Part shown: one piece after another, positions 1 through 53,948 of the stretch | Layout of the letters: every line of letters starts with the position of its first letter | Position numbering within the stretch: the first letter of the stretch is position 1 | Assembly: GCA_964629685.1 (NCBI GenBank) | Contig: CAZVTT010000001.1 | Coordinates: 769,319 to 833,318 of the forward strand | Reading direction: 5' to 3' | Length of the DNA: 64,000 bases | Source of the DNA: an uncultured Gammaproteobacteria bacterium | GTDB lineage: Bacteria > Patescibacteriota > Microgenomatia > UBA10105 > UBA927 | Translations under genes and position numbers: made by a program | The notes under the pieces: generated by a model | Told to the model about the DNA's origin: nothing | Database searches by the model: none | Seen by the model: the letters and a program-made list of their open reading frames with translations, nothing else

Positions 1-258
1 AATCCGGCAGGCTTAGACGCAATACCTGGCACGGATGATGAAGCTGTTATTCTTCCGTATGAAGGGCAACTACTTCATGTCAGAACGAAAACTCAGAACA
101 GTAGATTTTTAGTAATATCGGAAATGCATAACCCTATCTGGTCTGTTACCATAGACGGGAACCCTGCCACCATTTACCGGACAAATTATGCATTTATGGG
201 AATAGTAGTACCGGCTGGAGTGCATGATGTACGTATTCGTCCGAAGCCAGGAATATGA
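1..258 (+). CDS. C-terminal ~85 aa of a YfhO-like polytopic membrane protein; 5' end lies outside the window
   Basis: Frame 1 is open from nt 1 to TGA at 256-258, and the stop overlaps the next ATG (ATGA). The tail ...IWSVTIDGNPATIYRTNYAFMGIVVPAGVHDVRIRPKPGI parallels the C-terminus of the 789-aa protein at 7944-10313 (...IHKTNYTFRGLYVPEGKHQIQFEY). This is the YfhO-type C-terminal pattern Y(R/K)xNYxF(R/M)G(I/V)xVPxGxHxxxF. Confidence 0.5.
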   Translation, partial: NPAGLDAIPGTDDEAVILPYEGQLLHVRTKTQNSRFLVISEMHNPIWSVTIDGNPATIYRTNYAFMGIVVPAGVHDVRIRPKPGI

Positions 259-1166
259 ATAAAAAACAAACGGTTTCCATAATAATTCCCAACCACAACG
301 GCATTTCGTTGTTACGGCAATTCTTACCGAAAGTCATAGACGTAGCGGACGGTGCAGAGATCATTGTTGTAGATGATAATTCCACGGATGATTCCGTTTC
401 CTGGATGAAGCAAATTGGTACCCGCATAACCGTTATAGAAAAGAAAGAACATACAGGTTTTGCTTCTACGGTAAACACAGGTGTAACAGCTGCCAAGGGG
501 GATATAGTGTATTTGTTAAATACGGATGTCGTACCGGAAAAAGGTTTTTTGTCCCCATTGCTGACCGTACTGGAGGATGAGCAGGTATTCGCGGTCGGCA
601 GTCTGGAAAAAAGCCATGAAAAGGAAGGTATCGTTACTCGTGGCAGGGGTAAGGCTAAATGGACAAAAGGGTTTTTTATTCACCGGAAAGGTGAATCGGA
701 TTTGCGGGATACTGCCTGGGTATCAGGAGGAAGCGCAGCATTCAGAAAGTCGTTATGGGTAAAATTCGGCGGAATGGACGAATTATACAATCCGTTTTAC
801 TGGGAAGATATCGATTTGTCATACAGGGCGTTAAAGAACGGATACAAAATCAGGTTTGAGCCAACCAGTATAGTACATCATTACCATGATAAGGGAAGTA
901 TAAAACGGGAGTTTTCTCCTGAATATGTAAAACTGGTGGCATACCGGAATCAGTTTATTTTTATCTGGAAGAATTTATCTGACGCAGGTATTTTCCGGGA
1001 TCATTTCCTTTGGCTTCCTGTCCGCTTGTTTCAGGCATTATTTCGGTTCGATTGGCGGTTCACTGCCGGCTTATTTTGGGCGGTACTTCTGCTTCCCGCA
1101 ATTATTCACTCGCGGCACTTACAGCAGCAATTCTGGCGTATTCCCGATCGGGAAATTCCCTTATAA
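255..1166 (+). CDS. Glycosyltransferase family 2 (GT-A fold)
   Basis: The N-terminus VSIIIPNHNG...AEIIVVDDNSTDDS and the later KGDIVYLLNTDVV match the GT2 signature (NDP-sugar binding region plus DxD-like motif). AGGAA lies a few nt upstream of the ATG. Confidence 0.8.
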   Translation: MNKKQTVSIIIPNHNGISLLRQFLPKVIDVADGAEIIVVDDNSTDDSVSWMKQIGTRITVIEKKEHTGFASTVNTGVTAAKGDIVYLLNTDVVPEKGFLSPLLTVLEDEQVFAVGSLEKSHEKEGIVTRGRGKAKWTKGFFIHRKGESDLRDTAWVSGGSAAFRKSLWVKFGGMDELYNPFYWEDIDLSYRALKNGYKIRFEPTSIVHHYHDKGSIKREFSPEYVKLVAYRNQFIFIWKNLSDAGIFRDHFLWLPVRLFQALFRFDWRFTAGLFWAVLLLPAIIHSRHLQQQFWRIPDREIPL

Positions 1167-1931
1167 CGTATCGAGAAAGTCTACCAGCAAAGTGTTAAAG
1201 GTAGCAGGTTGCTCCATATTCACCAAATGTCCCGCATCCGTAATCTCTTCCGTACGTGAGAGTTCAATACGTCTCTCCAGAATTTTCGCAACATCCTGGA
1301 AATACGTTAGATCATTTGTTCCTTTAATGATTAGCGTCGGTACGGCAATTTCCGTAATCCGATCAATGGCTTTAGGAAATAATTTTTTCCGGAAATCTCC
1401 GTCTATCCAGTGCGAGCCGGAATAATCGTGTACCATTTGTTGGAGTTGCTCATAGGCTTCCTGGTGTTTTCTGGTTTCGCTAAATACCTCATGAGTCAGC
1501 CAGTAATGTTTGGCGTTCGGAATTCCTTCTTCTCTGGCATGTACATTCCAGCTGACGGTGCTGGCATATCCGCCTAACGATGAATTTACCAGTGTCAGCG
1601 ATCTTATGAATTCAGGATGGGTGAGGGTCGTATCTATGGCTATTTCGCCACCCAGCGATAATCCTACAAGGTGTGTGCGCGTGATTCCCAAATGATCCAA
1701 TAACCGCGCTAAGTCATCGTGATGCGCATACGGTGATCCGGGAATGGAGGATTTACCGAATCCCCGTAAATCGTACGTGAGTACCTGAAATTGTTGGGCA
1801 AAGTAGGTTATTTGCGGTTGCCATAATCTATGATCCATGCCGAACCCGTGCACAAAAGTCAACGTTTCTCCTTTTCCTTCAAGCTGATAGTGTAAAACTC
1901 CGCGGGAAACTTCGCATGTGCCGTTAGACAT
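1161..1931 (-). CDS. Alpha/beta-hydrolase fold protein (esterase/lipase type)
   Basis: HGFGMDHRLW forms the oxyanion-hole region and GLSLGG is the GxSxG nucleophile elbow. The 256-aa length is typical of the ABH fold. Confidence 0.75.
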   Translation of the reverse strand: MSNGTCEVSRGVLHYQLEGKGETLTFVHGFGMDHRLWQPQITYFAQQFQVLTYDLRGFGKSSIPGSPYAHHDDLARLLDHLGITRTHLVGLSLGGEIAIDTTLTHPEFIRSLTLVNSSLGGYASTVSWNVHAREEGIPNAKHYWLTHEVFSETRKHQEAYEQLQQMVHDYSGSHWIDGDFRKKLFPKAIDRITEIAVPTLIIKGTNDLTYFQDVAKILERRIELSRTEEITDAGHLVNMEQPATFNTLLVDFLDTL

Positions 1932-2010
1932 AGCCGTAGTGTACAGTTGTCTCGGTCATTTGCCAACGTGTACGAAATGGGACTAGTCCGGGCGGCTTTA
2001 TCTGGGTACA

Positions 2011-2907
2011 ATGTATTGTTGTAAATACGGAATCATTATTATGAAATGTTATCTTTGTTCTTCTCCAATGCAACCGTTTCTAAATAAAAACGGTTTCCGG
2101 ATATATCGTTGTCGGGAGTGCACCTTGGCACAAACCGATTTGCGTCAGAATTATGACGAGTTTGTTGAAGAACATTATGCGAAAGGGTATTTTACCGGTG
2201 ACGCAACTAAAGTTGCATATGTGGATTATAAAGATGATAAGGCTATGATTGTAAGAAATATGCGGAAATTTCTTCAGCGTATTGAGCAGGTTAAGCCGAA
2301 CGGAAAGTTGTTGGATGTGGGATGTGCACTAGGGTTTTTTGTAGAGTTAGCGCTTTCTAAAAATTTTGATGCGTATGGATTTGACCCTTCAGATTATGCC
2401 GTTACCGAAGCCCGGGCGTTAGTTGGGGATGACCGTATTCAGAAATATACGATCCACACTGCCAAGTATGCTTCCGGGCAATTTGACGTCATCACTTTAT
2501 TTGACGTGTTTGAACATTTGGCTGATCCGGCAAGGGATCTACGGCAGTTGTACAAATTATTAAAACCGGACGGCATTTTGATTCTGGCAACGGGGGATAC
2601 GAATAGCTGGCTTGCGAAAATATTAAAAAAACGCTGGACATTTTATATTCCGCCGCAGCATTTGTTTTTTTTCAACCAGCAAACGCTTTCGTCGCTACTT
2701 GAACGGGAGAAATTCATACCCACACAATGGTTCCGTATAGGAAAATGGTTGAGTTTACGGTATGTGCTGCATTTAGCAGGAACAACAGGACAAAGCGGGT
2801 TGGGTAAATATTTGTATCAAAAGGTTAAATCGAATTGGTTGGGGAAAATTCCGCTCTGGTTGCCTGTGCAGGATAATATGGTAGTAGTTGCGCAAAAAAG
2901 GAAATAG
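2011..2907 (+). CDS. Class I SAM-dependent methyltransferase with N-terminal CxxC...CxxC zinc ribbon; start is more likely ATG 2041 (MKCYLCSS...)
   Basis: Zinc ribbon CYLCS...YRCREC. Motif I LLDVGCALGFF and post-I FDVITLFDVFEHL resemble Methyltransf_11/23. Confidence 0.75.
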   Translation: MYCCKYGIIIMKCYLCSSPMQPFLNKNGFRIYRCRECTLAQTDLRQNYDEFVEEHYAKGYFTGDATKVAYVDYKDDKAMIVRNMRKFLQRIEQVKPNGKLLDVGCALGFFVELALSKNFDAYGFDPSDYAVTEARALVGDDRIQKYTIHTAKYASGQFDVITLFDVFEHLADPARDLRQLYKLLKPDGILILATGDTNSWLAKILKKRWTFYIPPQHLFFFNQQTLSSLLEREKFIPTQWFRIGKWLSLRYVLHLAGTTGQSGLGKYLYQKVKSNWLGKIPLWLPVQDNMVVVAQKRK

Positions 2908-2943
2908 TCGTTAATTTGAAGCAATATCCTGTATTGTCTGTGT

Positions 2944-4644
2944 CTACTTCGTGCGGTGCAGGATTTGAAACACGGCGCTGTTATCACTTCGTTGTATGAT
3001 TTTATCATAGGTAATGAGCGGGCTGTCCACGCGTGTGCATGTTCCGGCGTTTACATACAGAATATTCGTTTCGCCCACTAGTTGTGTTTTTACTTTTCCT
3101 GTTGGTTCGGAAACGGTATCCATACGTACCGGACAATCATCCGTGGTAAAGGTGTAAGGTCCGAAGGATACCCGATCAAAATCGTTGGTAGCTAGTTGGG
3201 CTGTCTCACGTTGGAATAAAGCAGGATCATATTTCAGATAAAATAACATGAATATTGTGGGTGCGGATTCGCGGTTAGTGATTACCGCCCTATTATATTT
3301 TAGGATTTCCGGATTGATGGATTTGACTAACTCTGCGTATCCTTCCATCCTATACCATGGTTTATGCACCACCTGGTGGATGTAATACTGATGCAGGTAT
3401 TGAGTAAAACCAAATAAACATATAAGTAGCGTACCGGTAAGCAGAATACGTCTTTTTCCGGGCGATATCCGTTTTATGGTTTCCCATAGAGTGCTAATCC
3501 CGAGTGCAGTGCCGATTACGATGGGAATGATCATCACCACTGTCCGTTGCAGGTTCGGAATATCATCAAATGTCAGCGCGCTTCCGATAGGGGCCAGTAG
3601 TAACCAGCCGAATATTACATTTGTATCGGGCGATTTATTTTTGAGTAGGGTGATGAGTCCCAGGAGGATAAGCGGTAGTTCAAAAATATAGAGCAGGCCG
3701 GCACCGGGCACCCTGTATCGGTCGGGAAAACCAGCATCCGTAAAAAGGAATTTATAGGTAAAGTGATCAAAATAATTTTGGATTACCGCTTGCCCATAGC
3801 CTATTAGTTTGTTATGAAAAAGCCGGGAAACAATCGGTTGTATTTTCATTACACCGTCTTCGCGGATGGCTTCGTCGAGCATCAGCTGTGTGCCCTGTGA
3901 CGCGAACACACTTACCGTTTGGATGCGTAGTCCCAAGTTGGGCATTTTAAAAATAATGACGACCGGAATTACGATACACAACGTGTAAAGCAACCAGGTT
4001 TTGCTATGTATTCGTTTTTTTTCAGGAAAGTTCCAGAGCAATACCGGAAGAAAAAGAGGCAAAAATATGCGGGGTGCTTGGTACATAGTCAGAGTTATGC
4101 CAAAACTGGCAAATGCCAATAGTACTAGTGAAATTCGTTTTGAACTAAGACCGCGTCGGTACAACCAGACTCCCAGCAGAATAAAAAATAATACCGGTAT
4201 ATGTTCGGTTGCCGTACGCGAAAGGTTTATGTGCCATGGAGAAACCGCCAACAGAAATGCACCCAGTATTCCTACCGCCTTCCGGTGCTGCAGGGTAGAA
4301 AATTGGAATACGATTAATGCGACAAGCAAAATGCTTAAGGACCCGAATAATGCTGAGGCAAATCGAACGGAATACGCGGATAATCCGAACACCGCGATGA
4401 AAGGAATAGAAAGATATGAGTAGCCACCGGGACTATACAGGAAAGACCGGAAATGCAAAGGAAGGCGCGCCCCGGTCATATCGTTTCCGGTTTTGAGCAG
4501 TGAATAGGCATTGTAGCCCAAAAACGCTTCATCTCTATGCAGACCCGCGGGGATATGACCCAGCTCATGAAAACGGATAACGCCACCCAGGAGTATGGCA
4601 ACAGCAAGTAAAATAATGCCGATATTAATTCGTTTCATGAACAC
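2944..4644 (-). CDS. GT39/PMT_2-like (ArnT/PMT family) GT-C membrane glycosyltransferase, paralog 1
   Basis: N-terminal TM helix, then the loop motif LHRDEAFLGYNAYSLLKTGNDMTGARLPLHF shared with the four other paralogs. Multiple TM helices follow, then a C-terminal soluble domain. Confidence 0.7.
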   Translation of the reverse strand: MFMKRINIGIILLAVAILLGGVIRFHELGHIPAGLHRDEAFLGYNAYSLLKTGNDMTGARLPLHFRSFLYSPGGYSYLSIPFIAVFGLSAYSVRFASALFGSLSILLVALIVFQFSTLQHRKAVGILGAFLLAVSPWHINLSRTATEHIPVLFFILLGVWLYRRGLSSKRISLVLLAFASFGITLTMYQAPRIFLPLFLPVLLWNFPEKKRIHSKTWLLYTLCIVIPVVIIFKMPNLGLRIQTVSVFASQGTQLMLDEAIREDGVMKIQPIVSRLFHNKLIGYGQAVIQNYFDHFTYKFLFTDAGFPDRYRVPGAGLLYIFELPLILLGLITLLKNKSPDTNVIFGWLLLAPIGSALTFDDIPNLQRTVVMIIPIVIGTALGISTLWETIKRISPGKRRILLTGTLLICLFGFTQYLHQYYIHQVVHKPWYRMEGYAELVKSINPEILKYNRAVITNRESAPTIFMLFYLKYDPALFQRETAQLATNDFDRVSFGPYTFTTDDCPVRMDTVSEPTGKVKTQLVGETNILYVNAGTCTRVDSPLITYDKIIQRSDNSAVFQILHRTK

Positions 4645-6265
4645 GTAATGTTTTAATAATTCCGATTCCCAATATCATACACCATGCTCCGATAGAAAAA
4701 ACAGAAATGAGGTTGGTAGCCGTCCGGAATTTAGTTTCCCCAAATTTTATGCTAACGGAATATTCACCCGATGATAAGGGAAATGTAATTAACCCTCTGG
4801 CTGCAGGATCCTGAAATTCAATAGGTACCGGAATACCGTTTGCCGTAACAGTCCAACCGGGATAATAGAGTGTTGATTCGACGAGTTTTGACGGTAAAGT
4901 GGTATGTATGGAATACCGGTGTTCTATCGTCGAACGATAAAGTTCTCGTATTTCCGAATTTCCTTCAACTACCTGCAGCGCATGTTCGGGGGGTGCTGCG
5001 GGGTTTCCTGCACTCCATACCGTAGAAGACTGTCCGTGAAAATCAGTTGGCCCGTTATATGATTTGTAATACTCATCCGAATGCGTAATGACTTCGGGTA
5101 TTGCGGTAGCCATCGGTAAGGAAAATAAACATACGAGTGGTAATAGACACAGTATTACGGTTCGGCGTCCGAACTTTGGCAGGGAGAGCGTAATTGCGCA
5201 GGCAGCCGCGAATGAGGCAAGTGCCATCATCCTCCAAGGAAACTGTAGTTTTTGTAACATAGGTAATGCTCTCCATATGGATGAGGAGCTTGAAATCATC
5301 ATAAACAACGCGATTGTGGTTATTCCCAGGAAAAAAAGTATTCGTTTCGAATGAGCGGTGCGGTGATTAAAATAAAAGACGGAGAGTATCAGCAATAATA
5401 CTGGTAGTATTCCTAATTGCGGCGACAGGCCTTGCGGATCTGCGACAGCGGCGCCATTTCCCCATGTTGACCAGATGAGCTGTATTGGCGTAACAAAATT
5501 TTGTTTATACATGTCACCGATAAATAGAGCAGCATGAGTATATTTCTGTTCCGTGAGGGCCGGGAGCCAAAACCAAGAAGCAAGTGCTAATCCAAATAAT
5601 ACCGCAGTAAAATTTCCGAATCCTTTTTTTCCTGTCCCGGCAGATACAGCCGTATAAAGGATTATGACCGGCAAAAAAATAAGACTTATTCCGTTATGCG
5701 CCAGAATCAGTAGTGCTGTTGTTCCCGACAGGGCTGAGAATGAGAAGGCGGATATTCGCTTCGAGTTTCGGTCTGCACTCAGGAAAATTAATGGTATTAC
5801 GGCCAGTGCCACCAATTCTCCGATATCACCGCGGATATACAGGTTCAGGAAATGGTAGGGTAGTAATCCATAAATTAATGCCCCTAAAAATGCGTACTCG
5901 TCAGCGACATGCTGCTTCATCCACCAGAAAAAATGTAATCCTGCCAATATAAAACTTACCGAGATAAGTATCTTAAATCTGTTTTCATACGATAATCCCA
6001 GTGGGGAAATTGCGGCTGATAAATATCCCGGTAGAGGATAGAAAAAATTAAACACCGGAGAGCCAAACCTGTAATTTAAATCTCCTGCCCATCGGGGAGG
6101 AATGTGGCGGTCGGCAAATGCTTTATCATAGGCAGCAAAGCGGGCAATATTTACTTCACCGTCATGTGATTTCGGTATACCCGGATTAAGCATCGGCACG
6201 GTAAACGCTCCGAGTATTATGAGCAGGATTATGCACCAGTGACGGGTTTGAGGTGGTCGACCCAT
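4625..6265 (-). CDS. YfhO/PTPS-related-type polytopic membrane protein (putative GT-C glycosyltransferase), paralog A
   Basis: Shared N-terminal motif SHDGEVNIARFAAY...IPPRWAGDLNYRFGSPVFNFFYPLPGY. About 12 TM segments. C-terminal domain YYPGWTVTANGIPVPIEFQD..GEYSVSIKFGET. Paralogous to 10303-11961 and 19763-21394. Confidence 0.6.
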   Translation of the reverse strand: MGRPPQTRHWCIILLIILGAFTVPMLNPGIPKSHDGEVNIARFAAYDKAFADRHIPPRWAGDLNYRFGSPVFNFFYPLPGYLSAAISPLGLSYENRFKILISVSFILAGLHFFWWMKQHVADEYAFLGALIYGLLPYHFLNLYIRGDIGELVALAVIPLIFLSADRNSKRISAFSFSALSGTTALLILAHNGISLIFLPVIILYTAVSAGTGKKGFGNFTAVLFGLALASWFWLPALTEQKYTHAALFIGDMYKQNFVTPIQLIWSTWGNGAAVADPQGLSPQLGILPVLLLILSVFYFNHRTAHSKRILFFLGITTIALFMMISSSSSIWRALPMLQKLQFPWRMMALASFAAACAITLSLPKFGRRTVILCLLPLVCLFSLPMATAIPEVITHSDEYYKSYNGPTDFHGQSSTVWSAGNPAAPPEHALQVVEGNSEIRELYRSTIEHRYSIHTTLPSKLVESTLYYPGWTVTANGIPVPIEFQDPAARGLITFPLSSGEYSVSIKFGETKFRTATNLISVFSIGAWCMILGIGIIKTLRVHETN

Positions 6266-6268
6266 ACC

Positions 6269-7975
6269 TTACGGGCGGGAATTTACGAGCACAAATGCTA
6301 TATCCTCAACCGGATATTGAACTATGGTTTGCTTTACGGCGAATACAACCGGCTTTCTGGGGTAGTATACGGTTTTAAGCGGTGTAACATCCTTAGGTTT
6401 ATTATCCGGTGTAGTAACCAGTAACGTCCGTGGTTGTTTCATGTCGTGGTCCCAGTCAATTGCTCTGAATTCAAATTGATTAAATTTTAAAACCGGAATA
6501 AATCCTTCCTCATCCGCGTTTCCTCTCAAAACCGTGTCCTGAAATGATGCCGGTGGAACATGCAGGTAAAACAGTACTGAAGTATAGGGAATTCCTGCCG
6601 CCGGGTCTATGATAACCTTGTCGTACTCAATGCTACTGGTAAGAAGAAAGGCTGCTAAAGCAGGGTCTTCGGCTCGCCAAGCAGGTGCATACACTACCGG
6701 AAATCTGATGGTGTAAGACATGAAATAGTGAATACCGCTAAGCGTGAATAGTATTAATGTTATAAGTGATAAACCGACTTTAATCATTTTCGGACTCCTA
6801 CGGACATACGAAAGGAGTGTCTCATAGCCGGTTGCAAGCACGACCGTAAGCGGAAATAGCAAGAAATAACTTCTGGTCGCGTGCGGTGCTTCGCGGGTTA
6901 AGCTGGCGACACCAACGGTAATAACCGCCCAACCGGAAAGATAGATCATCCAGGATTCTCTCTTTCTCGTCCAAACCCATAGCCCTATCAACATGATTGC
7001 TATTTCGAATAAATAGAATTGTCCGGTAGTAGAAATTCCATGGTTGCCATGTGTTGATCCGGTTATAAAAAAGAAAGGCACAGACAAATAATTCGCGACA
7101 TTTTTAGAAAATTGCATACCATTCAACAGATATGAATTAAAAAAGAGTTGCGGAATTGGTTTAGGAAGCGTGTTAGCAAAACTTCTCAATTCTATTAACG
7201 GTGCTTGCACGACCGCACTTGAGGTTAGCAGCGTTCCTTGTGCGGAAGTTACTCCCCCCAATGACCGGAACGACAATACGAATGGCAGCAAGAGGATTAA
7301 CGTCGGTAATATTGCGATGAGTAATTCACCTTTTCCCGGTGTTTTTTGATTTCGTTTTAGGAATATAAAAGAAAAAACTGCCAGCAACGGAGCCAACATT
7401 CTGGTCAGATTATACGTATATAGTCCCAATACAAAACACAGCAGACTAATACATAACCACCCGCGCTTGTGCTCAAAGGCTTTCATCATTGCCCATGAAC
7501 CTGTCATCAATAAAAATAATCCGATACTGACCTCGAAGGTAGCTCTACTATAATGTATATGCCAGGGATTTACTGTCAGTATTGCAGCCGCAATCAGACC
7601 TGTGTTTTTTTTCTTTGTGAGTTTAGTGACCAATACATACATGAGTATGACGGTAAGCACCCCAAATAATGCGGAAGGGAAGCGTACTGCAAATGGGGTT
7701 AGACCGAATAGCTTTATTGAAATCGCTGCGGTATATATGTATACCGGTAATTTCTGGTCACCGAATGATGTAAAGTAGAGCGGAAAAGAAACGCCGTGCT
7801 CGTCTTTTCCGGTTTCCAGAATGGAATATGCGTTATATCCGATGGCAGTTTCGTCCTGATAGAGTCCGTTAGGAATTGTTCCCAGAGCGTAAAATCGAAT
7901 ACAGGCAGCTATAAAAACCACCAATCCCAATACCCAGAAGTGTTTATTCATGATGCCGTCGTTTCCCGATTGCAT
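6269..7975 (-). CDS. GT39/PMT_2-like GT-C membrane glycosyltransferase, paralog 2
   Basis: Loop motif LYQDETAIGYNAYSILETGKDEHGVSFPLYF after the first TM helix; polytopic. Confidence 0.7.
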   Translation of the reverse strand: MQSGNDGIMNKHFWVLGLVVFIAACIRFYALGTIPNGLYQDETAIGYNAYSILETGKDEHGVSFPLYFTSFGDQKLPVYIYTAAISIKLFGLTPFAVRFPSALFGVLTVILMYVLVTKLTKKKNTGLIAAAILTVNPWHIHYSRATFEVSIGLFLLMTGSWAMMKAFEHKRGWLCISLLCFVLGLYTYNLTRMLAPLLAVFSFIFLKRNQKTPGKGELLIAILPTLILLLPFVLSFRSLGGVTSAQGTLLTSSAVVQAPLIELRSFANTLPKPIPQLFFNSYLLNGMQFSKNVANYLSVPFFFITGSTHGNHGISTTGQFYLFEIAIMLIGLWVWTRKRESWMIYLSGWAVITVGVASLTREAPHATRSYFLLFPLTVVLATGYETLLSYVRRSPKMIKVGLSLITLILFTLSGIHYFMSYTIRFPVVYAPAWRAEDPALAAFLLTSSIEYDKVIIDPAAGIPYTSVLFYLHVPPASFQDTVLRGNADEEGFIPVLKFNQFEFRAIDWDHDMKQPRTLLVTTPDNKPKDVTPLKTVYYPRKPVVFAVKQTIVQYPVEDIAFVLVNSRP

Positions 7976-11961: not shown

Positions 11962-12024
11962 GTGGTATAAATTTGGATTTTGCTTCCGTGTGCGTATAGC
12001 CGTATTATAACAGAGGTGTTACAC

Positions 12025-13554: not shown

Positions 13555-13575
13555 GTTTAGTACAATATAACTGCT

Positions 13576-14847
13576 ATGGAGCATCTTTTTGCGCTCAATG
13601 CTATCCTTTTATTTGCTTTGGGATTTCCCCTGGTTATGAAATACAGGATTCTTCCCGTTGAGGGAACTCCATACTGGCTATTTGGTGTTTTGTTTGTACT
13701 GTGGGTGGGTAATTGTGCGTTGGCGTTTTTCCGAAAACAAATTGAAAAAAAATTACCCGTTCAAAGTATCAGGAATGTTATTTTGGTCGTTAGTTTGACT
13801 TTAGTTATCGGTGGAATCACGTGGACATCAATAGCGGATAGGCACAGAGTTGCTCCCGTTTGGGGTGTACACGATATTATTTTGCAGCAGGAAGCTGCCA
13901 TGCGCTATCTGGTTACGGGGAAGAATCCGTATAAAGAAACCTATTTCGGTACGCCGGTCGAAAGTTTTAAATATGACGAGATGGGTGAAGCTGCCGTAAA
14001 TCCTGCACTATATCATTTTGTCATGCCGCCGTGGTATTTACTTTTCCCCTTTAGTGTTTACGTTCCTGCTAACCGGTTATTCGGCTACTTCGACGGAAGA
14101 ATGGTATCTTTGCTGTGTCTCTTGGGTACACTCTATATCTTGTGGCGTTGGTTCCATACCCGTGAATTGGGTGTACTTGCAATTATCTTGACCGCGTTAT
14201 CTCCCGGCATAGTGGAGTATTTTATTGAAGGCCGCAGTGATGCGTTTGCATTGTTCTGGATGCTGTTGGCATTTTTTCTGTTGGATAGCAAACGGTATAT
14301 TTCATCGGCAATCGTGTTCGGACTGGCATTTTTAAGTAAGCAAACCATCTGGTTTGCGACCCCCATTTTTTTTGTTTTACTGTGGTTAAAAAGTAATTCC
14401 CGTAAAACGGTTATTCGCTCCGTTATTGCTACCGGAATAGTTGTGTTAGCATTAGTGACGCCGTTTTTGCTTTGGGATGCGGAGGCTTTTTTCGCGAGTA
14501 CGGTATTTTATTTAAGCGGCAGTGCGAATTTAGCAACCAGTTATCCCGTATCAGGTTACGGGTTCGGAATGCTTTTGCACTCGTTGGGTTTTATCCGTTC
14601 AATACATGATTATTATCCATTTACTATCTGGCAGATACTCTGCGGGCTCCCCGTTCTCGGATTTGGCATATGGCGGCTCAAAAAACAACCCAAAGTATCA
14701 ACCGCGCTATTTGTATACGGATTATTTCTCTGTATCGTTTGGTATTTCAGCCGGTATTTTAACAACAGCCACGTCGGAGTTGTTGCACAACTCTTAGGCT
14801 TGGCACTGCTAAAACAGGCAGATGAGTATCGGGAGAATGCGACATGA
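13576..14847 (+). CDS. Integral membrane protein, possibly DUF2029/GT87-like mannosyltransferase family
   Basis: 423 aa and hydrophobic throughout (about 10 TM). No soluble domain. Lies upstream of the GT39 triplet. The family call is tentative. Confidence 0.4.
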   Translation: MEHLFALNAILLFALGFPLVMKYRILPVEGTPYWLFGVLFVLWVGNCALAFFRKQIEKKLPVQSIRNVILVVSLTLVIGGITWTSIADRHRVAPVWGVHDIILQQEAAMRYLVTGKNPYKETYFGTPVESFKYDEMGEAAVNPALYHFVMPPWYLLFPFSVYVPANRLFGYFDGRMVSLLCLLGTLYILWRWFHTRELGVLAIILTALSPGIVEYFIEGRSDAFALFWMLLAFFLLDSKRYISSAIVFGLAFLSKQTIWFATPIFFVLLWLKSNSRKTVIRSVIATGIVVLALVTPFLLWDAEAFFASTVFYLSGSANLATSYPVSGYGFGMLLHSLGFIRSIHDYYPFTIWQILCGLPVLGFGIWRLKKQPKVSTALFVYGLFLCIVWYFSRYFNNSHVGVVAQLLGLALLKQADEYRENAT

Positions 14848-16457
14848 AACGACGATTCCTGCTGATTTGGTTCGTGTTAGTGCTCGTTGCCGCAATATTG
14901 CGGATCTATGGGATCTCGCAGAATCCTCCGGGATTATCCTGGGATGAAGTCTCAATCGGGTACAACGCATATAGTATTCTTAAGACAGGCGCTGATGAGC
15001 ACGGGAAAATATTACCACTGGACACCTTTGTAGCGTACGGAGATTATAAACCGCCGCTATCTATCTATATTACCGTTCCGTTCGTATCTGTATTTGGATT
15101 AAACGCATTGGCTGTCCGTTTACCGTCGGCGCTGTTCGGTATTGCATTAGTCGTGCTTATATTTCCGTTAGTAAAACAACTGTACTCAGATAAAACGCAG
15201 GCAGAGTATTTAGGTCTGATCGCGACCGGTGTGATGGCTTTTTCGCCATGGCATATTAATTTATCCAGGGCGGGCTTTGAGGCTAACATTGCCACAACAC
15301 TGGTGGCCTTTGGTGTTTATGCTATCCTGCGTGCCCGCTCAGCCATTTTCTGGCGATACTGGTGTTGGATACCGTTTGTATTGGCCATGTATACCTTTAA
15401 CAGCGCCCGTTATTTGGTTCCGCTTTTGGGTGTTGTATTGCTCTATCCGCTTCGGCTGGAGATAGTAAAATCCAAAAAAAATTGGTTAGTGGGAATGGTT
15501 TTGGCATTTGTTTTTTTAGTTCCGCTTATACCTCACCTGTTATCGCCTCAGGCACGATTGAGGTTTACGGAGGTGAATATTTTTTCGGATAGTTCCGTCG
15601 TTATCACGGCAAATGAACGGATTGCTGCAGACGGGAATTCAATATTCAGTTCTATCCTGAATAACAGAAGGATCGGATATGCCAGAAGTTATCTAACACA
15701 TTTTTTTGATCACTTTGAACCTTGGTTTTTATTTATCCGCGGTGATGGTAATCCAAAATTTTCCATTCAGGATGTGGGTCAGCTCTATATGGTGGAAGCC
15801 CCCTTTCTGATAGTCGGTTTGTTCTGGTGGATACTTCACGCCAGAAAGAGCGGAATATTGTTGCTGACATGGCTACTGCTGGCCATTATTCCTGCTGCAA
15901 CAGCTCGTGAAACTCCCCATGCTTTACGGATAGAAAATTCTTTACCCGTCTGGCAGTTATTTATTGCAGGAGGAGTTCTTTCGGTATGGGTGTCCGTACG
16001 TCAGCGTATCCGCCGTAACATCGTAATCCTACTTTGCCTGGGACTTTGGTTCGGGAATATTATTTTTTACATACATAACTATTACCAACACTACCCGCGG
16101 CAATATTCAGGGGAGTGGCAATACGGGTATAAGGAAGCACTCCAAAATGCTTTTCCGCTGGTATCGTCATATAAACACGTAGTGATTTCCGAGCGGATAG
16201 GCAGGGCATATATGTACGTATTGTTTTATTCTCAATTTGATCCGCGGAAGTTTATTGCTGATAAAGAATCATTTTTTGATGCGGCGGGTTTTTATAACGT
16301 GGTTAGGTTTGATAAATACCGTTTTGTAAAAGAAGCTCCGGCATTTGAACCGGATACGCTTTACATACTGCCTCCTGATCAGGTTCCGTCGGGAGCACAC
16401 GTGTTAACTACCGTTAGGCTATTAAACGGCAACCCTGTTTTAGTCCTGTTTGATTAA
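14844..16457 (+). CDS. GT39/PMT_2-like GT-C membrane glycosyltransferase, paralog 3
   Basis: LSWDEVSIGYNAYSILKTGADEHGKILPL motif; polytopic; ATGA overlap with the upstream gene. Confidence 0.7.
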   Translation: MKRRFLLIWFVLVLVAAILRIYGISQNPPGLSWDEVSIGYNAYSILKTGADEHGKILPLDTFVAYGDYKPPLSIYITVPFVSVFGLNALAVRLPSALFGIALVVLIFPLVKQLYSDKTQAEYLGLIATGVMAFSPWHINLSRAGFEANIATTLVAFGVYAILRARSAIFWRYWCWIPFVLAMYTFNSARYLVPLLGVVLLYPLRLEIVKSKKNWLVGMVLAFVFLVPLIPHLLSPQARLRFTEVNIFSDSSVVITANERIAADGNSIFSSILNNRRIGYARSYLTHFFDHFEPWFLFIRGDGNPKFSIQDVGQLYMVEAPFLIVGLFWWILHARKSGILLLTWLLLAIIPAATARETPHALRIENSLPVWQLFIAGGVLSVWVSVRQRIRRNIVILLCLGLWFGNIIFYIHNYYQHYPRQYSGEWQYGYKEALQNAFPLVSSYKHVVISERIGRAYMYVLFYSQFDPRKFIADKESFFDAAGFYNVVRFDKYRFVKEAPAFEPDTLYILPPDQVPSGAHVLTTVRLLNGNPVLVLFD

Positions 16458-18102
16458 TATGAAAACATTTTTAACTAAAAATCGGTTAATTCTGGGAATT
16501 TTATGTATAGGTTTTATGCTAAGGATTTGGCAACTGGGATCAGTTCCGCCCAGCCCGGATTGGGATGAAGCTGCCTTAGGATATAACGCGTATTCAATAC
16601 TAAAAACCGGAAGAGATGAATACGGTATCTGGTTTCCGCGTACGTTGCGTTCGTTTGATGATTATAAACCACCGCTCTATATGTACCTGACGATACCGTC
16701 GGTAGCTATTTTCGGTCTGGATACTTGGACTGTACGGTTGCCGTCCGTGGTGATGGGAATGTTCGCAATTTGGGGAGTCTTTCTCATGACCGGAGAGTTG
16801 CTGCGGAGGACAAACGAAAAGAAAGAGTTTCGGGCCATGCCCTATCTGAGTGCATTGCTATTGGCAATCTCTCCTTGGCATATTCAATTTTCGCGAATAG
16901 CATTTGAAGCAAATACCGGCGTTACGTTAAATATTTTGGGAGTATATACGTTGTTGCGGGGATTTAGGTCGCCTCGTTGGTTATTGGGGAGTGCTGCTTT
17001 ATTTGCCTTAAGTCTCTACGCGTATCATAGCCAACGGATATTTGCACCGCTTCTGGTATTGTTACTCGGCGGCATTTTTTGGCATGAACTTCGTCGGGTT
17101 AACCTTAAGTTCATACTAGGTGCGTTTGTTGTTGGTATATTGGTCATAGCGCCCTTGATACCGGTTATTTTTGATACGACGGCCTTAACACGTTTACGCG
17201 GAACCAGTTCACTTTCCGATCAGACCAGATTATTGGCAAATAGTGTAGAAAAATTGGACGCAGATCAGAAAGCCGGTAATAGAATCGGATTGTTGCTCGA
17301 TAACAGACGTCTGGTATGGGCGCGAACATTGGCGGAAGGATATGTATCCCATTTTTCACTGCGTTGGTTATTTCTGACCGGAGATAATGCCAGGCATCAT
17401 GCTCCCGATAATGGTTTACTGTATCTTTGGGAATTGCCATTTCTATTCTTGGGAATGTTGTGGGTCTTTCATAAAGGGAAAATATTACGCTCTTTGCTTT
17501 TCGGTTGGTTGCTGCTTGCGCCGGTTGCCGCTTCACCGACAACGGAGTTACCTCATGCTATTAGGACATTGGTTTTTTTACCTGTATGGCAGATATTTAC
17601 GGCATTCGGAATCGTGTATGCCTGGCGTCGGATTCAAACATATCGTTCCCCAATAACTCGCGTTATGACGCTTGGCGTTGTAATCGCGATAGTATTTAAT
17701 CTTGTCTTTTATCTTTATATGTATTTCCGGCAGTTAAACAGGGAATATTCTCCTTATTGGCAGTATGGGTATAGGCAGGCTGTACTTTATACACAGCAGC
17801 ACTACGATGCGTATCAGAAAATAATCGTGTCTACGAAATTGGAACAACCTCACATGTTTTTCCTTTTTTACCTGAAATATGATCCCGTTTTATATCTGTC
17901 TAATGGGGGGACTAAGTCCGGGGGATTTGCAGAGGTCAGGAATGCATTCGGTAAGTACGAATTCAGACCGATTCATTGGGAGCAGGAGAAACGTGACGGG
18001 ACCGAATTATATATCGGTACACCGAATGAAATTAGCGGAAGCCGGCTGGAGACGATTTATTATCTGGACGGAAAAGAAGCGATAATTATTGCCGACCGTT
18101 AA
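16450..18102 (+). CDS. GT39/PMT_2-like GT-C membrane glycosyltransferase, paralog 4 (alternative start ATG 16459)
   Basis: PDWDEAALGYNAYSILKTGRDEYGIWFP motif. C-terminal soluble domain YLKYDPVLY...GGFAEVRNAFGKYEFRPIHW is shared with paralog 5. Confidence 0.7.
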   Translation: MINMKTFLTKNRLILGILCIGFMLRIWQLGSVPPSPDWDEAALGYNAYSILKTGRDEYGIWFPRTLRSFDDYKPPLYMYLTIPSVAIFGLDTWTVRLPSVVMGMFAIWGVFLMTGELLRRTNEKKEFRAMPYLSALLLAISPWHIQFSRIAFEANTGVTLNILGVYTLLRGFRSPRWLLGSAALFALSLYAYHSQRIFAPLLVLLLGGIFWHELRRVNLKFILGAFVVGILVIAPLIPVIFDTTALTRLRGTSSLSDQTRLLANSVEKLDADQKAGNRIGLLLDNRRLVWARTLAEGYVSHFSLRWLFLTGDNARHHAPDNGLLYLWELPFLFLGMLWVFHKGKILRSLLFGWLLLAPVAASPTTELPHAIRTLVFLPVWQIFTAFGIVYAWRRIQTYRSPITRVMTLGVVIAIVFNLVFYLYMYFRQLNREYSPYWQYGYRQAVLYTQQHYDAYQKIIVSTKLEQPHMFFLFYLKYDPVLYLSNGGTKSGGFAEVRNAFGKYEFRPIHWEQEKRDGTELYIGTPNEISGSRLETIYYLDGKEAIIIADR

Positions 18103-18107
18103 CCCTT

Positions 18108-19766
18108 ATGCAAAAACAGTTTTTCGCAGCGATACGGAAGCACGGTATTTGGATTGTACTTTTCTGTGCATTATTGCTGAGGCTGTATGCTATAGAACAC
18201 GTTCCTCCCAGTCCTTCTTTAGATGAGGTTTCGTTAGGGTATAATGCCTATTCCATTTTAAGGACCGGAATGGATGAGTTTGGTACCCGGTATCCCATCA
18301 TATTGCGGGCATATGACGATTTTCGTCCGGCCCTGTATGTCTACGCAGTAGCGCCGATGGTCGCTGTTTTCGGATTAACACCGTTAGCTGTACGGTTGCC
18401 CTCAGTTCTCTTGTCGTTAGCAAGTATTTGGGGATCATATATGATTGTTAAAACGTGGTTCTTGCTTTACTGGCAGCAGGTAAAGACAAAACGATTTGCA
18501 GAAGAAGCAGCATTGGGAACCGCCTTATTGCTGGCAATATCCCCGTGGCATATATATCTCTCCCGGTTGGGTCATGAAGTAAATTTAGGATTAGCATCCG
18601 TAATTATATCGATTCTGGTATTTTTCCGCGCCCTTAGTACGAAACGTTTTGGGTGGTTAATCCTTTCTGCTTGTACTTTCGGTTTAGCGTTCTATAGCTA
18701 TCAGAGTGAAAAAGTAGTTGTACCGTTGGTTCTTTTAGCATTGGGTATGTTGTTTCTTCGCGAATTGTGGAAGACTAAACGCACCGAATTAATCATTTCA
18801 TTGTTGGTAGGGTTTATTTTAGTAACGCCAATGACCGTACAATCCTTGAGCAAACAGGGAATGCTGCGATATACCGCCACATCCGCATTTACCGAGGGAA
18901 ATCCGATTTATGCACGGGATCGTCAGAATTTCGTGGCAGCAAAAACAAAGGGGAATATAGTGGGACAGTTACTTGCTTACCCGAAATTTTCATCACTAAA
19001 AATATTTTTGGGAAATTATTTTTCACATTTTAATATCGGCTGGTTATTTTTCGGTGGCCAACATGAAAGCCATAAGGTTCCGAACCTCGGATTACTGTAC
19101 GTATGGGAGTTTCCGTTTATCGTAATCGGTATATGGCTGTTCCTAAAATCACCCTTTCCGGGCAAATTAAAGTGGTTTGTAACAGTATGGTTTTTGTCTG
19201 CGGCAGTACCGGCAGCCATTACCACTCAGGCTCCTCACGCAATGCGTTCCTTGACGTTTCTGCCGTTATGGCAATTTTTTTCTGCTTACGCAGCGGCTTA
19301 TCTCATTGCGCGTATTCAATGGCCGGTGATTATCGGTTTAACGGTAGCGGTTATGGCAAGCATAATATCGTTTAATACAAATTATTTTCGCGTATTTCCC
19401 GTGACGCAGTCAGACTCGTTTCAATTCCCCTTGTCGCAAGCCCTGCCCGTTGTATTTGAACTGGAAGACGGGTATAAGCACATAGTGGTATCGAATGAAG
19501 ACGCGCTGTACCAGTCCTATATGTTTTATCTGTTTAACCGAAAGTATGATCCAAAAATGTATCTGAAAATGGGAGGTACCGTCAGTGGCGGATTTGCCGA
19601 AAAACATAGTATCGGAAAATACGAATTTAGGCCGTTACATCCGGGTGAAAAAATGGAGCCGGATGTCCTGTACGTTGGGAATCCGCAGGATTTTAACGGC
19701 GGAACAACCGTAAGGGAATTTACAAACTTAGCAGGACAAACGCGAGTGGTTGTGAAAACATTATGA
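18108..19766 (+). CDS. GT39/PMT_2-like GT-C membrane glycosyltransferase, paralog 5
   Basis: PSLDEVSLGYNAYSILRTGMDEFGTRYP motif. C-terminal YLKMGGTVSGGFAEKHSIGKYEFRPLHP matches paralog 4. Confidence 0.7.
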   Translation: MQKQFFAAIRKHGIWIVLFCALLLRLYAIEHVPPSPSLDEVSLGYNAYSILRTGMDEFGTRYPIILRAYDDFRPALYVYAVAPMVAVFGLTPLAVRLPSVLLSLASIWGSYMIVKTWFLLYWQQVKTKRFAEEAALGTALLLAISPWHIYLSRLGHEVNLGLASVIISILVFFRALSTKRFGWLILSACTFGLAFYSYQSEKVVVPLVLLALGMLFLRELWKTKRTELIISLLVGFILVTPMTVQSLSKQGMLRYTATSAFTEGNPIYARDRQNFVAAKTKGNIVGQLLAYPKFSSLKIFLGNYFSHFNIGWLFFGGQHESHKVPNLGLLYVWEFPFIVIGIWLFLKSPFPGKLKWFVTVWFLSAAVPAAITTQAPHAMRSLTFLPLWQFFSAYAAAYLIARIQWPVIIGLTVAVMASIISFNTNYFRVFPVTQSDSFQFPLSQALPVVFELEDGYKHIVVSNEDALYQSYMFYLFNRKYDPKMYLKMGGTVSGGFAEKHSIGKYEFRPLHPGEKMEPDVLYVGNPQDFNGGTTVREFTNLAGQTRVVVKTL

Positions 19767-21394
19767 ACTCACGAAAAATAGGGTTATTCATACTTTTACT
19801 CCTTTCTTTTTTACCCGTAATTTCACTATTACAGCCGGGCTTACCGGTAACGCACGATGCACAGGATCATGTGGTCAGAATTGCAAATTTTTTCCGGTCT
19901 TTTATGGAGGGAAATCTTATACCGCGTTGGGGAGGAGACTTAAATTGGGGATTTGGTCACCCGGTACTCATGTTTCTTTATCCACTCCCTTCGTATGTGG
20001 CGGTTTTTTTCCGGTTGGTAGGACTCAGTTTTGTTGATAGTACCAAAATGGTATTCGGGCTTGCATACGTTGCGAGTATTCTGACGTTCTATGTATGGGC
20101 GAGGCGACAATGGGGGAATGCAGCAGGATTCGCAGGAGCGATTGCTTACGGATTTGCACCGTACAGATTCGTGGATTTGTATGTCCGTGGAGCAATTGGC
20201 GAACATGTGGCTTTTATTTTCCCGCCCTTAATTTTGTTTGGCTTGTGGCTATCCGCACATAAGAAACAGTCTCAGTTTATTCAACTGTTATGTATCTCAG
20301 GGGGAGTTGCAGGTTTAGTGCTATCACACAATGCAGTAAGTCTGATGGTGCTTCCTGTGGTACTTCTCTATTCGTTATATTTGGCGAAGTATCATTCGGA
20401 CAGACCAAAGAGTTTTCTGTTGTGGATATTTGCCGCGCTGTCTGCGGGTATGGCCCTCTCCGCATTTTTCTGGATTCCTGCTTTGCTCGAAGGAAAGTAT
20501 ACCTTGCGGTATATCGTAACCGCAGGAGAAGTTCTCCAGCGATTCGTTCCGTTATCTCAGTTATTCTATTCTCCGTGGAATTATGGTGGCGGAAATGATT
20601 TTTCGAAACAAGTGGGAGTACTGCAATGGTTAAGTATTGTAGGATTGGTAGGAATCGTATGGCGTAACGGCATACGTCGTGAACAAAGCCGGTTGTCGTT
20701 CGGTATTGTTATCGTGTGCCTTTTTTCTATATGGATGACGACAGGCTGGTCCGGTTTCCTCTGGAAACATGTTCCGTTGTTGCAAACGTTTCAGTTCTCC
20801 TGGCGTTTTCTTACTCTGACCGTGTTTGCTACCGCAGCAGCGGTGGCGCAGTGCATATCATTTTTATCGGCACGCGTTAGACGATGGATTGTCCTTCTCT
20901 TTACGTGCATCACACTTATTCTTACGGTAGGCATGTGGCACCCAAAAACGTACAAGGTATATGATCCGCATTTTTTTACGAATATATATCAGGGGACTAC
21001 GGATACCGGTGAAAGTAGTCCTATCTGGTCCGTTCGTTTTATGGAACGAATACCTCCTGCTCCGCTGGAATTAATAGCCGGTGAAGCATCGTTCGTCGCT
21101 TTAGAAAGGTCTTCCACATTTCATGAATACAGAGTAATTGCACGTACAAAGTCACGTTTGGTAGAAAATACGTTATACTTTCCGGGTTGGGTTTTACTGG
21201 TAGACGGGGTAAAAGTCGAACCACAATTCCAGGACCCTGACTACCGCGGACTTATGACATTTTGGTTAGAGACGGGTGAGCATACCGTCCAATTTATGTT
21301 TACGGATACGAAAGTGCGTAAGATAGCAAACACCATAAGTATGATATCCGCGGTAGCAATTCTGGTTTTGTTCGGAAAGCGGTTAGTTTTATGA
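19763..21394 (+). CDS. YfhO/PTPS-related-type polytopic membrane protein, paralog C
   Basis: VTHDAQDHVVRIANFF...IPRWGGDLNWGFGHPVLMFLYPLPSY and C-terminal LYFPGWVLLVDGVKVEPQFQDPDYRGLMTF...GEHTVQFMFTDT. Overlaps the upstream GT39 by 4 nt. Confidence 0.6.
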   Translation: MNSRKIGLFILLLLSFLPVISLLQPGLPVTHDAQDHVVRIANFFRSFMEGNLIPRWGGDLNWGFGHPVLMFLYPLPSYVAVFFRLVGLSFVDSTKMVFGLAYVASILTFYVWARRQWGNAAGFAGAIAYGFAPYRFVDLYVRGAIGEHVAFIFPPLILFGLWLSAHKKQSQFIQLLCISGGVAGLVLSHNAVSLMVLPVVLLYSLYLAKYHSDRPKSFLLWIFAALSAGMALSAFFWIPALLEGKYTLRYIVTAGEVLQRFVPLSQLFYSPWNYGGGNDFSKQVGVLQWLSIVGLVGIVWRNGIRREQSRLSFGIVIVCLFSIWMTTGWSGFLWKHVPLLQTFQFSWRFLTLTVFATAAAVAQCISFLSARVRRWIVLLFTCITLILTVGMWHPKTYKVYDPHFFTNIYQGTTDTGESSPIWSVRFMERIPPAPLELIAGEASFVALERSSTFHEYRVIARTKSRLVENTLYFPGWVLLVDGVKVEPQFQDPDYRGLMTFWLETGEHTVQFMFTDTKVRKIANTISMISAVAILVLFGKRLVL

Positions 21395-53923: not shown

Positions 53924-53948
53924 CCTCGTCTATTGGTCAAAAAGCAAT

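Follow-up and report, generated by a model that had tools for sequence, protein, structure and literature searches.

We analyzed a 64-kb stretch of DNA (the window: positions 769,319 to 833,318 of contig CAZVTT010000001.1, assembly GCA_964629685.1) from an uncultured bacterium of the Candidate Phyla Radiation (CPR, or Patescibacteria), and found in it a dense run of polytopic membrane proteins of the GT-C glycosyltransferase type. The listing of open reading frames and their Pfam matches resolve 2944-21394 into 11 consecutive intact genes of this kind, and 1-255 is the tail of a 12th. The initial annotation of this DNA had recognized about a dozen GT-C genes packed into 21 kb, which is borne out for 1-21394; as a total for the window the count is too low, since three further GT-C-like proteins (X914, X1169 and X696) are encoded beyond 21394. 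In all, the window holds 14 complete GT-C-type genes and one partial gene, and the island to which it belongs, including its upstream part, at least 16. With somewhat more confidence than doubt, we favor a reading in which these enzymes would assemble a complex glycan step by step outside the membrane from polyprenyl-phosphate sugars, by the logic of mycobacterial lipoarabinomannan (LAM) and arabinogalactan synthesis.

The run consists of two divergent arms that fill 2944-21394 and meet at 11961/11980. The gene order of the minus arm is B2, Y, A2, B1, A1, and that of the plus arm is C, D, A3, A4, A5, B3, after which come GT2, GT4, GT2, a Wzx-like flippase, GT2 and GT2. If gene C begins at its first ATG (12025), the intergenic gap between the arms is 63 bp. 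Most neighboring genes overlap by 4-32 nt, with start and stop codons overlapping along both arms, and the coding share of the whole window is 97.6%. The arms look like two operons. In scans of 1-20000, promoter matches (35, relative to 46 expected from shuffled sequence) and terminator matches (21, relative to 20 for shuffled sequence) were not above chance. On the minus strand upstream of B2, a sigma-70-like site at 12031-12004 (CTGTCA, 16 nt, then TATAAT with an upstream TG, i.e., an extended –10) matches the consensus at 10 of 12 positions and is the sole strong one in the divergent intergenic region, in a scan that overall did not exceed chance.

GT-C enzymes have 8-13 transmembrane (TM) helices and carry an acidic motif in an extracytoplasmic loop. 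The polytopic architecture was found throughout the run, where a crude hydropathy scan of the 11 proteins gave 5-18 hydrophobic segments each, partly overlapping. An invariant or conserved acidic residue lies in the first loop of A1-A5, the B family, C, D, X914 and X696, and a conserved D was found in Y too. Searches for GT-C families of the kind proposed in the initial annotation matched PMT_2, PMT, YfhO, PTPS_related and GT87 in the run; all five belong to the GT-C clan of Pfam, CL0111, which includes PTPS_related, PMT, PMT_2 and GT87 (PMC7801869). Similarity to solved GT-C structures was found as well, as described below for B1 and X914.

Table 1. Position, strand and best evidence for the GT-C-type genes of the window and for the glycosyltransferase and flippase genes discussed with them.
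Feature	Position	Strand	Description	Evidence
A1	2944-4644	-	PMT_2/PMT-like GT-C	PMT_2 E 1.7e-10; PMT E 6.5e-9 (36.1 bits); invariant D38-E39
A2	6269-7975	-	PMT_2/PMT-like GT-C, divergent paralog	PMT_2 E 9.7e-14; PMT E 6.8e-11 (42.6 bits)
A3	14844-16457	+	PMT_2/PMT-like GT-C	PMT_2 E 1e-10; PMT E 1.3e-6 (28.6 bits)
A4	16450-18102	+	PMT_2-like GT-C	PMT_2 E 2.7e-10
A5	18108-19766	+	PMT_2-like GT-C	PMT_2 E 2.4e-10
B1	4625-6265	-	PTPS_related GT-C, C-terminal beta-sandwich and terminal TM helix	PTPS_related E 7.5e-15
B2	10303-11961	-	B1 paralog, first minus-arm gene	BLASTP to B1 E 4e-86; invariant D, RW.G.LN, Y.PGW..FQD
B3	19763-21394	+	B1 paralog	BLASTP to B1 E 3e-91
C	11980-13554 (probable start ATG 12025)	+	PMT_2-like GT-C, first plus-arm gene	PMT_2 E 2.9e-12
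D	13576-14847	+	GT87 (PimE-like) GT-C, 423 aa	GT87 E 1.1e-10; PMT_2 E 5.6e-8
Y	7944-10313	-	YfhO-family GT-C, 789 aa	PF09586 E 4.2e-23, 82.1 bits (gathering score 28.5)
YfhO-like tail	1-255	+	YfhO-like GT-C, 3' end at window edge	last 85 residues; 34% identity to Y C-terminus, E 1e-12
X914	32634-35378	+	AftD-like GT-C, 914 aa, large extracytoplasmic domain and C-terminal TM helix	AlphaFold2 fold match
X1169	41894-45403	+	X914 paralog, 1169 aa	BLASTP to X914 E 7e-25 over 590 aa
X696	45692-47782	+	YfhO/PTPS_related superfamily, 696 aa	profile-profile match to B family
303-aa GT2	255-1166	+	GT2, conserved cluster partner	Glycos_transf_2 E 3.5e-24
255-aa GT2	21391-22158	+	GT2, closes the GT-C run	Glycos_transf_2 E 7.9e-18
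228-aa GT2	23227-23913	+	DPMS/ArnC-like GT2, candidate polyprenyl-phosphate sugar synthase	PDB 5mlz E 6.9e-20; ArnC E 1.6e-14
Wzx-like protein	23910-25166	+	Polysacc_synt, MOP superfamily, candidate flippase	PF01943 E 2.4e-14; nine hydrophobic segments
239-aa GT2	53904-54623	+	second GtrB/DPMS-like GT2, candidate donor synthase	PDB GtrB 5ekp E 3.4e-12; DPMS 5mlz E 1.1e-10

The five A proteins (537-568 amino acids [aa]) all exceeded the PMT_2 gathering score; A1-A3 also exceeded that of PMT (PF02366, 22.7 bits), and A4 and A5 matched PMT_2 only. They are 27-36% identical in pairwise BLASTP comparisons, and the E-values among paralogs of the A and B families (1e-35 to 1e-109) are far beyond chance. 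About 13 residues past TM helix 1, all five carry the invariant motif D-E-x-x-[LI]-G-Y-N-A-Y-S-[IL]-L-x-T-G-x-D-x-x-G. The stricter form reported at first for all five, DExxxGYNAYSIL(K/R/E)TGxDExG, is exact in four of them and departs in A1 (SLL, DMTG), with the core kept in every one. The loop-1 DE motif is a hallmark of PMT and GT-C enzymes, and its mutation lowers or abolishes activity (PMC8698208). Relative to the PMT family (GT39, including actinobacterial Pmt), the A proteins share the loop-1 DE after TM helix 1, the polytopic GT-C core and, for A1-A3, the PMT match, and their multiplicity recalls fungal Pmt1-7. They differ from it in lacking a MIR domain (no Pfam match), in a distinct C-terminal domain with an LFYLKYDP motif, and in being about equally ArnT/PMT_2-like. 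Bacterial Pmt proteins are not known to carry MIR either, so that its absence excludes only the eukaryotic type. The A-family profile aligned to ArnT (5ezm) over the core region with E = 7.5e-7, YKPP falling on EKPP at the end of periplasmic loop 1; the ArnT equivalog model (NCBIfam PRK13279) gave only 14.9 bits relative to a cut-off of 567 bits. Thus, of the label 'GT39/PMT_2-like', the PMT_2 part stands and GT39 is not established, since ArnT-like and PMT-like models match about equally. The two further polytopic proteins noted at 12025-14847, where 12025 is the first ATG, proved to be the PMT_2-like C and the GT87-like D, the latter with 42.1 bits against the GT87 model (gathering score 25). 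After TM helix 1, C shares a conserved D-Q pair with PMT_2 proteins of 425 aa in the related loci, and D has a conserved HDI.LQQE loop motif in common with its orthologs.

The B family had been described as three paralogs of a YfhO/PTPS-related-like family, which agrees with the PTPS_related match of B1 and the strong paralogy of B2 and B3 to it. B1 scored 54.8 bits against PF10131 (gathering score 26.4), with only the first 324 of 621 model positions matched; B2 and B3 fell below Pfam detection (no match at E ≤ 0.01), and identities within the family are 28-34% by BLASTP. The elements RW.G.LN...G.P and the C-terminal Y.PGW...G...FQD are invariant in B1-B3, as the initial annotation had it. 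Of the other motifs listed there, HDxxxHxxR is exact in B3 only, with just its D and R shared by all three proteins, and B2 lacks FYPLP. After TM helix 1, D35 is invariant in 50 B-family sequences. Because PTPS_related is without an assigned function though placed in the GT-C clan (PMC7801869), the structure of B1 was modeled. AlphaFold2 (AF2), run with the 50-sequence alignment, gave a model (pLDDT 92.4, pTM 0.92) of ~12 TM helices; a compact C-terminal beta-sandwich and a terminal TM helix set this subfamily apart from the Pfam family. The PDB had yielded nothing useful to sequence-only searches with the B and X696 profiles, so that a fold comparison was needed. The top 27 Foldseek matches of the B1 model in the PDB were all GT-C (probability 0.85-1.0) and included STT3, PglB, AglB, AftD, ArnT, AftA, Pmt4, Emb and ALG12. 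The structural check suggested at the outset, with ArnT, PglB and Emb among the expected matches, thus returned GT-C structures only. The beta-sandwich modules, as modeled, resemble accessory domains of carbohydrate enzymes. We rejected a 6-pyruvoyl-tetrahydropterin synthase as the identity of the family; the name is historical and the predicted fold is GT-C.

The side of the membrane on which these loops lie was predicted in two ways. Homology to ArnT loop 1 places the conserved loop of the A family outside, and the positive-inside bias on the helices of the B1 model places both loop 1 and the C-terminal beta-sandwich outside, instead of on the cytoplasmic side that the initial annotation had named as the finding that would speak against it. 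The B family itself is large: its profile recovered 21,002 clusters at 50% identity with E ≤ 1e-3, and 6,449 with E ≤ 1e-30, among 1.84 billion representatives. Some metagenomic representatives (P0253, P0259, P0269, P0277 and P0384) are 1,100-3,300 aa long with 2-6 matched stretches, and represent either GT-C genes fused in tandem or gene calls that read through.

The full and the partial YfhO-like proteins seen at first both hold up, as Y and as the tail at 1-255. By hydropathy, Y has a soluble stretch at ~460-755 followed by a C-terminal TM helix, and it aligned to the B-family profile with 85% probability in hhalign (E = 6.5e-6). Its first-loop D is conserved when Y is aligned with relatives. 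The 30 bits that Y scored against PgfM1 and PgfM2, relative to cut-offs of 1400-1500, do not make it an equivalog of either. The gene cut at 1-255 is complete, with 778 aa, in a contig (L007) of run SRR14271333 whose sequence agrees with window 1-6189 at 100% identity; genes of this organism are also present in runs SRR14271339, SRR14271365 and SRR14271372. The glycan island extends beyond the window start by 10 kb or more, whereas a search for sequence past the other end yielded a contig of only 1.2 kb. Upstream, at L007 1-9746, lie a second Polysacc_synt flippase, three GT2 genes, a gene for a 199-aa protein with no Pfam match, a 741-aa YfhO, a GT4 and the 778-aa YfhO.

X914, X1169 and X696 had no Pfam match. 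In a hydropathy scan each begins with ~11 TM helices and ends in a further one, with a large soluble domain in between. As single sequences, X914 and X696 aligned only weakly to the B profile (hhalign probability 17% and 37%); a family profile settled the relationship of X696, and an AF2 model the fold of X914. The X696 profile matched the B profile end to end (hhalign 98.3%, E = 1.8e-14). D49 is invariant in 41 X696-family sequences, of which two match YfhO and one GT-C_AftD in Pfam. The family has more than 866 homologs, nearly all 'hypothetical', and the few named ones belong to Levybacteria, Gottesmanbacteria and 'Patescibacteria group'. The X914/X1169 family is rare, with five other homologs in 5.8 billion sequences; T-W-D after TM helix 1 is invariant in its seven sequences, and X914 and X1169 also share NPF.YSRIIAGH. 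The AF2 model of X914, of medium confidence (pLDDT 74), best matched AftD (6w98/6wby; E = 5e-12, TMq 0.47-0.59, at least 900 columns), followed by STT3, DPY19 and PglB. X914 thus looks like AftD by predicted fold, and membership in GT-C_AftD (PF11847) is not supported by Pfam. The X696 and X914/X1169 families supply candidates for new GT-C families.

To see how the cluster is conserved, we compared it with three related loci that all hold B1 homologs: L003 (ENA), L005 (GCA_964452165.1) and L006 (Logan). The named B1 homologs come from Candidatus Levybacteria, Gottesmanbacteria and 'Patescibacteria group', which makes the source a CPR bacterium of the Microgenomates type; among the genome contigs scanned with B1, the only match was a locus of 29% identity in an alphaproteobacterial metagenome-assembled genome. 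The shared architecture has YfhO, GT2 (~307 aa) and GT2 (~237 aa), followed by a further YfhO and a D-like gene (L003), only the YfhO (L005) or only the D-like gene (L006). PTPS_related comes next and then three to six PMT_2 genes including one of ~425 aa, a run that in L003 also holds a 663-aa gene with no Pfam match; where a locus extends far enough, PTPS_related and GT2 follow. By BLAST, A1, A3, A4, A5, B1, B3, D and three GT2 genes have one-to-one orthologs at ~40-47% identity in conserved order. A1 orthologs (43-47%) stand directly after the B1 ortholog in the three loci; those of A3 are 40-43% identical and those of A4 45% in all three. The A5 ortholog of L006 (44%) is followed by that of B3 (45%), the same arrangement as in the window, and D orthologs (39-41%) precede the B1 ortholog in L003 and L006. 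Among the GT2 genes, orthologs of the 303-aa protein (43-48%) follow YfhO in L003, L005 and L006, those of the 255-aa protein (45-55%) keep its position in L005 and L006, and those of the DPMS-like 228-aa protein (44-49%) are, in all three loci, the single ~237-aa GT2.

Not all genes share this history. A2 has no clear ortholog in the compared loci (best external matches 30-32%), nor were clear one-to-one orthologs found there for B2, Y, C or the X914 family, and judged by these comparisons this set looks like a variable periphery. With 40-47% identity between orthologs and only 27-36% between paralogs within the genome, the genes were duplicated before these lineages diverged, and each paralog has been kept separately. 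The paralogs are thus ancient and probably non-redundant. A recent tandem amplification was rejected on the same low paralog identity and on the closer orthologs elsewhere. In L005, an MptA_B-family gene (PF26314) lies at 20288-21406, and small DUF5652/DUF5667 genes stand beside the GT-C run in the region of 2347-2583. By analogy, the MptA_B gene reinforces the mycobacterial-mannan-like character of the cluster.

The stepwise reading rests on one donor synthase being co-conserved with many non-redundant GT-C genes, several of them with beta-sandwich or AftD-like domains. Use of a polyprenyl-phosphate-linked donor by these enzymes has indirect support in the DPMS/GtrB/ArnC-like GT2 genes that are co-located and co-conserved with the cluster; the best NCBIfam matches of the 228-aa GT2 are AglJ, dolichyl-P hexose transferase, PpgS, ArnC and PgfS. 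In mycobacteria, several GT-C Araf transferases share decaprenyl-phosphate arabinose (DPA) (PMC11127046), and one conserved synthase may likewise serve many GT-C enzymes here. We infer catalysis, donor sugar, step order and acceptor in the following scheme. In the cytoplasm, the epimerases, the aminotransferase, the acetyltransferases and the methyltransferases encoded in the island would produce and modify nucleotide sugars, after which the 228-aa and 239-aa GT2 proteins would put single sugars on polyprenyl phosphate. The lipid-linked sugar would then be flipped, the Wzx/MOP-type protein at 23910-25166 being the candidate, and each GT-C enzyme would transfer a sugar to the growing acceptor in its own linkage or position through the loop-1 Asp (DE in the PMT-like enzymes). 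The A enzymes may prime or decorate the acceptor, and the YfhO, PTPS_related and AftD-like enzymes, with their predicted extracytoplasmic beta-sandwich modules, probably hold and extend glycan chains. An elaborate extracytoplasmic glycosylation with stepwise assembly, as first proposed for this DNA, is thus supported by the families present, the loop-1 residues and the predicted outside topology.

Several observations weigh against this scheme. Pfam scans of the 64 kb found neither an initiating phosphoglycosyltransferase nor a GtrA- or SMR-type flippase, and gaps of at most 309 bp leave no room for them. The C-terminal TM helices that GtrB and CsbB possess are missing from both DPMS-like GT2 proteins, and the first candidate Asp is variable among YfhO paralogs. 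In addition, going by characterized relatives, YfhO-family enzymes such as PgfM1 and PgtC2 also glycosylate proteins, and PMT-like enzymes normally act on proteins.

The last of these points leads to the chief rival, protein O-glycosylation, which we regard as possible and clearly less probable than stepwise glycan assembly. Here the number of paralogs would reflect acceptor specificity and not linkage steps: the five PMT-like proteins, possibly as hetero-oligomers like fungal Pmt1-Pmt2, and the YfhO-type enzymes would modify Ser/Thr-rich S-layer proteins, pilins or adhesins. The PMT scores of A1-A3 and the loop-1 DE of all five A proteins fit such a role, and there is a precedent in the YfhO-family PgfM1 and PgtC2, which O-glycosylate Ser/Thr-rich regions of streptococcal membrane or wall proteins from a lipid donor made by GtrB or PgfS (bioRxiv 10.1101/2024.05.05.592596). 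The streptococcal Pgf and GtrB-PgtC2 systems resemble the window in a YfhO-type GT-C whose last TM helix is preceded by a large loop or domain and in a paired GT2 synthase and epimerase, and Y weakly matches PgfM1/PgfM2. They differ in that the scores are far below the equivalog cut-offs, that no adhesin genes lie in the locus, and that the GT-C genes are many more here. However, neither the window nor the three related loci encode a candidate acceptor protein, and MIR domains are absent from the PMT-like proteins. Enzymes of the AftD-like, GT87-like and (in L005) MptA_B types act on glycans or glycolipids, and the modeled beta-sandwich modules are like accessory domains of carbohydrate enzymes. 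The two readings are compatible, in that PMT-like enzymes could prime proteins that other enzymes extend.

Three-component systems (GtrA/GtrB/Gtr*, CsbB/GtcA/YfhO, ArnC/ArnEF/ArnT and ORF15/14/12-GT136) keep together the genes for a GtrB/DPMS-like GT2 that forms the polyprenyl-phosphate sugar, a flippase that carries it across the membrane and a GT-C enzyme that passes the sugar on (PMC5836110, PMC11127046). The window likewise has a YfhO member and GtrB/DPMS-like GT2 genes. The ratio is different, with ~2-4 candidate synthases to at least 15 GT-C genes instead of 1:1; the flippases are of the Wzx/MOP type only, without GtrA or SMR, and the synthases lack TM anchors. Systems of the Gtr type are well known to decorate a finished polymer with different linkages (PMC11127046), and each GT-C here might similarly add an optional side-branch for antigenic or receptor variation toward phages, predators or host recognition. 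The part of the set that varies between lineages (A2, B2, Y, C and X914/X1169 lack clear one-to-one orthologs, and X914 is rare) would suit such decoration modules. We nevertheless hold them to be improbable, as the core of D, B1, A1, A3, A4, A5, B3 and the GT2 genes is ancient and syntenic, unlike seroconversion cassettes, and the Pfam survey turned up neither genes of phages or mobile elements nor phase-variation repeats in a window of even GC content. That some or many of the paralogs are not glycosyltransferases, serving instead as GT-C-fold scaffolds, in MmpA- or PIG-U-like lipid handling, or as ArnT-like modifiers of scavenged lipids, is the least probable account: X914, X1169 and X696 weakly match a model for MmpA trehalose-lipid delivery (E = 1e-4 to 8e-7, far below cut-off), the non-catalytic proteins PIG-U and GAB1 share the fold, and the A profile aligns to ArnT, whose acceptor is a lipid. 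Against it stand the acidic residues of loop 1, whose invariance in all families tested speaks for catalysis having been retained, an ArnT equivalog score far under its cut-off, and donor synthases that are co-conserved with the cluster.

Stepwise assembly outside the membrane therefore remains the reading that we prefer, and its closest parallel is the mycobacterial and corynebacterial synthesis of arabinogalactan and of lipomannan and LAM (EmbA/B/C, AftA-D, MptA/B/C, PimE and Pmt, with DPA and polyprenyl-phosphate mannose as donors), in which many GT-C enzymes likewise draw on few polyprenyl-phosphate donors. That analogy, already drawn in the initial annotation, is strengthened by the AftD-like fold of X914 and its paralog X1169, the GT87/PimE-like D, the PMT-like enzymes, the MptA_B gene of L005 and the DPMS-like synthases. 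Compared with the mycobacterial system, the window belongs to a CPR bacterium and holds the genes in one island, 11 of them contiguous, whereas the mycobacterial genes are scattered. In structural alignments, identity to the mycobacterial enzymes is negligible (8-16%), and no DPPR synthase or DprE-type genes were seen.

CPR bacteria are mostly uncultured, have genomes of ~1 Mb that encode little biosynthesis and presumably live attached to hosts; the genes they retain are therefore informative. At least 74 kb of glycan genes (the window and ~10 kb upstream), with at least 16 GT-C-type genes, make up ~8% of the 954-kb contig. Mycobacterium tuberculosis has a comparable absolute number of GT-C genes in a genome about four times larger. 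In the literature searched on CPR/Patescibacteria GT-C glycosyltransferases we found no description of this cluster, which is no proof that none exists; there are passing remarks on multiple 'dolichol-phosphate mannosyltransferase' genes in Peregrinibacteria and on GT87 in a Saccharibacterium. In principle the enzymology is known, and the novelty lies in the multiplicity, compaction and lineage. The cluster stands out by its CPR lineage, its compaction, its many GT-C genes per donor synthase, the missing GtrA-type flippase and two GT-C-like families without a Pfam model. With its ancient syntenic core in three related loci, it leads to the concrete and testable prediction that these cells carry an elaborate extracytoplasmic glycan, and it gives a functional context to large 'hypothetical' or misnamed families, namely the PTPS-related family (at the 6,449 clusters of the stricter threshold) and that of X696. 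A bolder version of this reading is doubtful: that the product would be a lipoglycan or wall polysaccharide like LAM or arabinogalactan, built by a dedicated set of more than 15 GT-C enzymes out of one or two polyprenyl-phosphate sugars, that it would be lineage-defining and central to episymbiotic surface biology, and that X696 and X914/X1169 would be new GT-C families.

All other genes of the 64 kb are glycan-related by Pfam and NCBIfam. The window holds eight GT2 and eight complete GT4 genes plus a 194-aa N-terminal GT4 fragment at 60394-60978, and a Wzx/MOP-type Polysacc_synt gene at 23910-25166, with another such gene upstream of the window in L007. It also encodes seven nucleoside diphosphate-sugar epimerases or dehydratases, a DegT aminotransferase, a GFO oxidoreductase, three hexapeptide acyltransferases, three S-adenosylmethionine (SAM) methyltransferases, a B12-binding radical-SAM enzyme, a sulfotransferase, an APH-type kinase and a split transketolase. 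We rejected an origin as a mobile or phage island, as the Pfam survey found no such genes and GC content is even across the window.

Some smaller features of the island deserve mention. An alpha/beta hydrolase gene (1161-1931, minus strand) and a gene for a SAM methyltransferase with an N-terminal Cys-rich segment (2011-2907, plus strand) break the GT-C/GT2 run and are absent at the corresponding position in L003, L005 and L006. A small open reading frame at 26846-27241, ferredoxin-like in its C-terminal ~65 residues (CIGAGPC...CP), lies directly upstream of the B12-binding radical-SAM enzyme (27285-28898), with which it could form a pair for sugar C-methylation or similar tailoring. The sulfotransferase, the APH/fructosamine-kinase-like phosphotransferase and the transketolase, whose N and C halves are separate genes, lie within 54672-56709 and 58601-60345 and hint at sugars that bear sulfate or phosphate and at an unusual route to keto-sugars or branched sugars. 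At the far end, 63599-64000 (plus strand) encodes the N-terminus of a hydrophobic polytopic protein that leaves the window, which might be O-antigen-ligase/Wzy-like or another GT-C.

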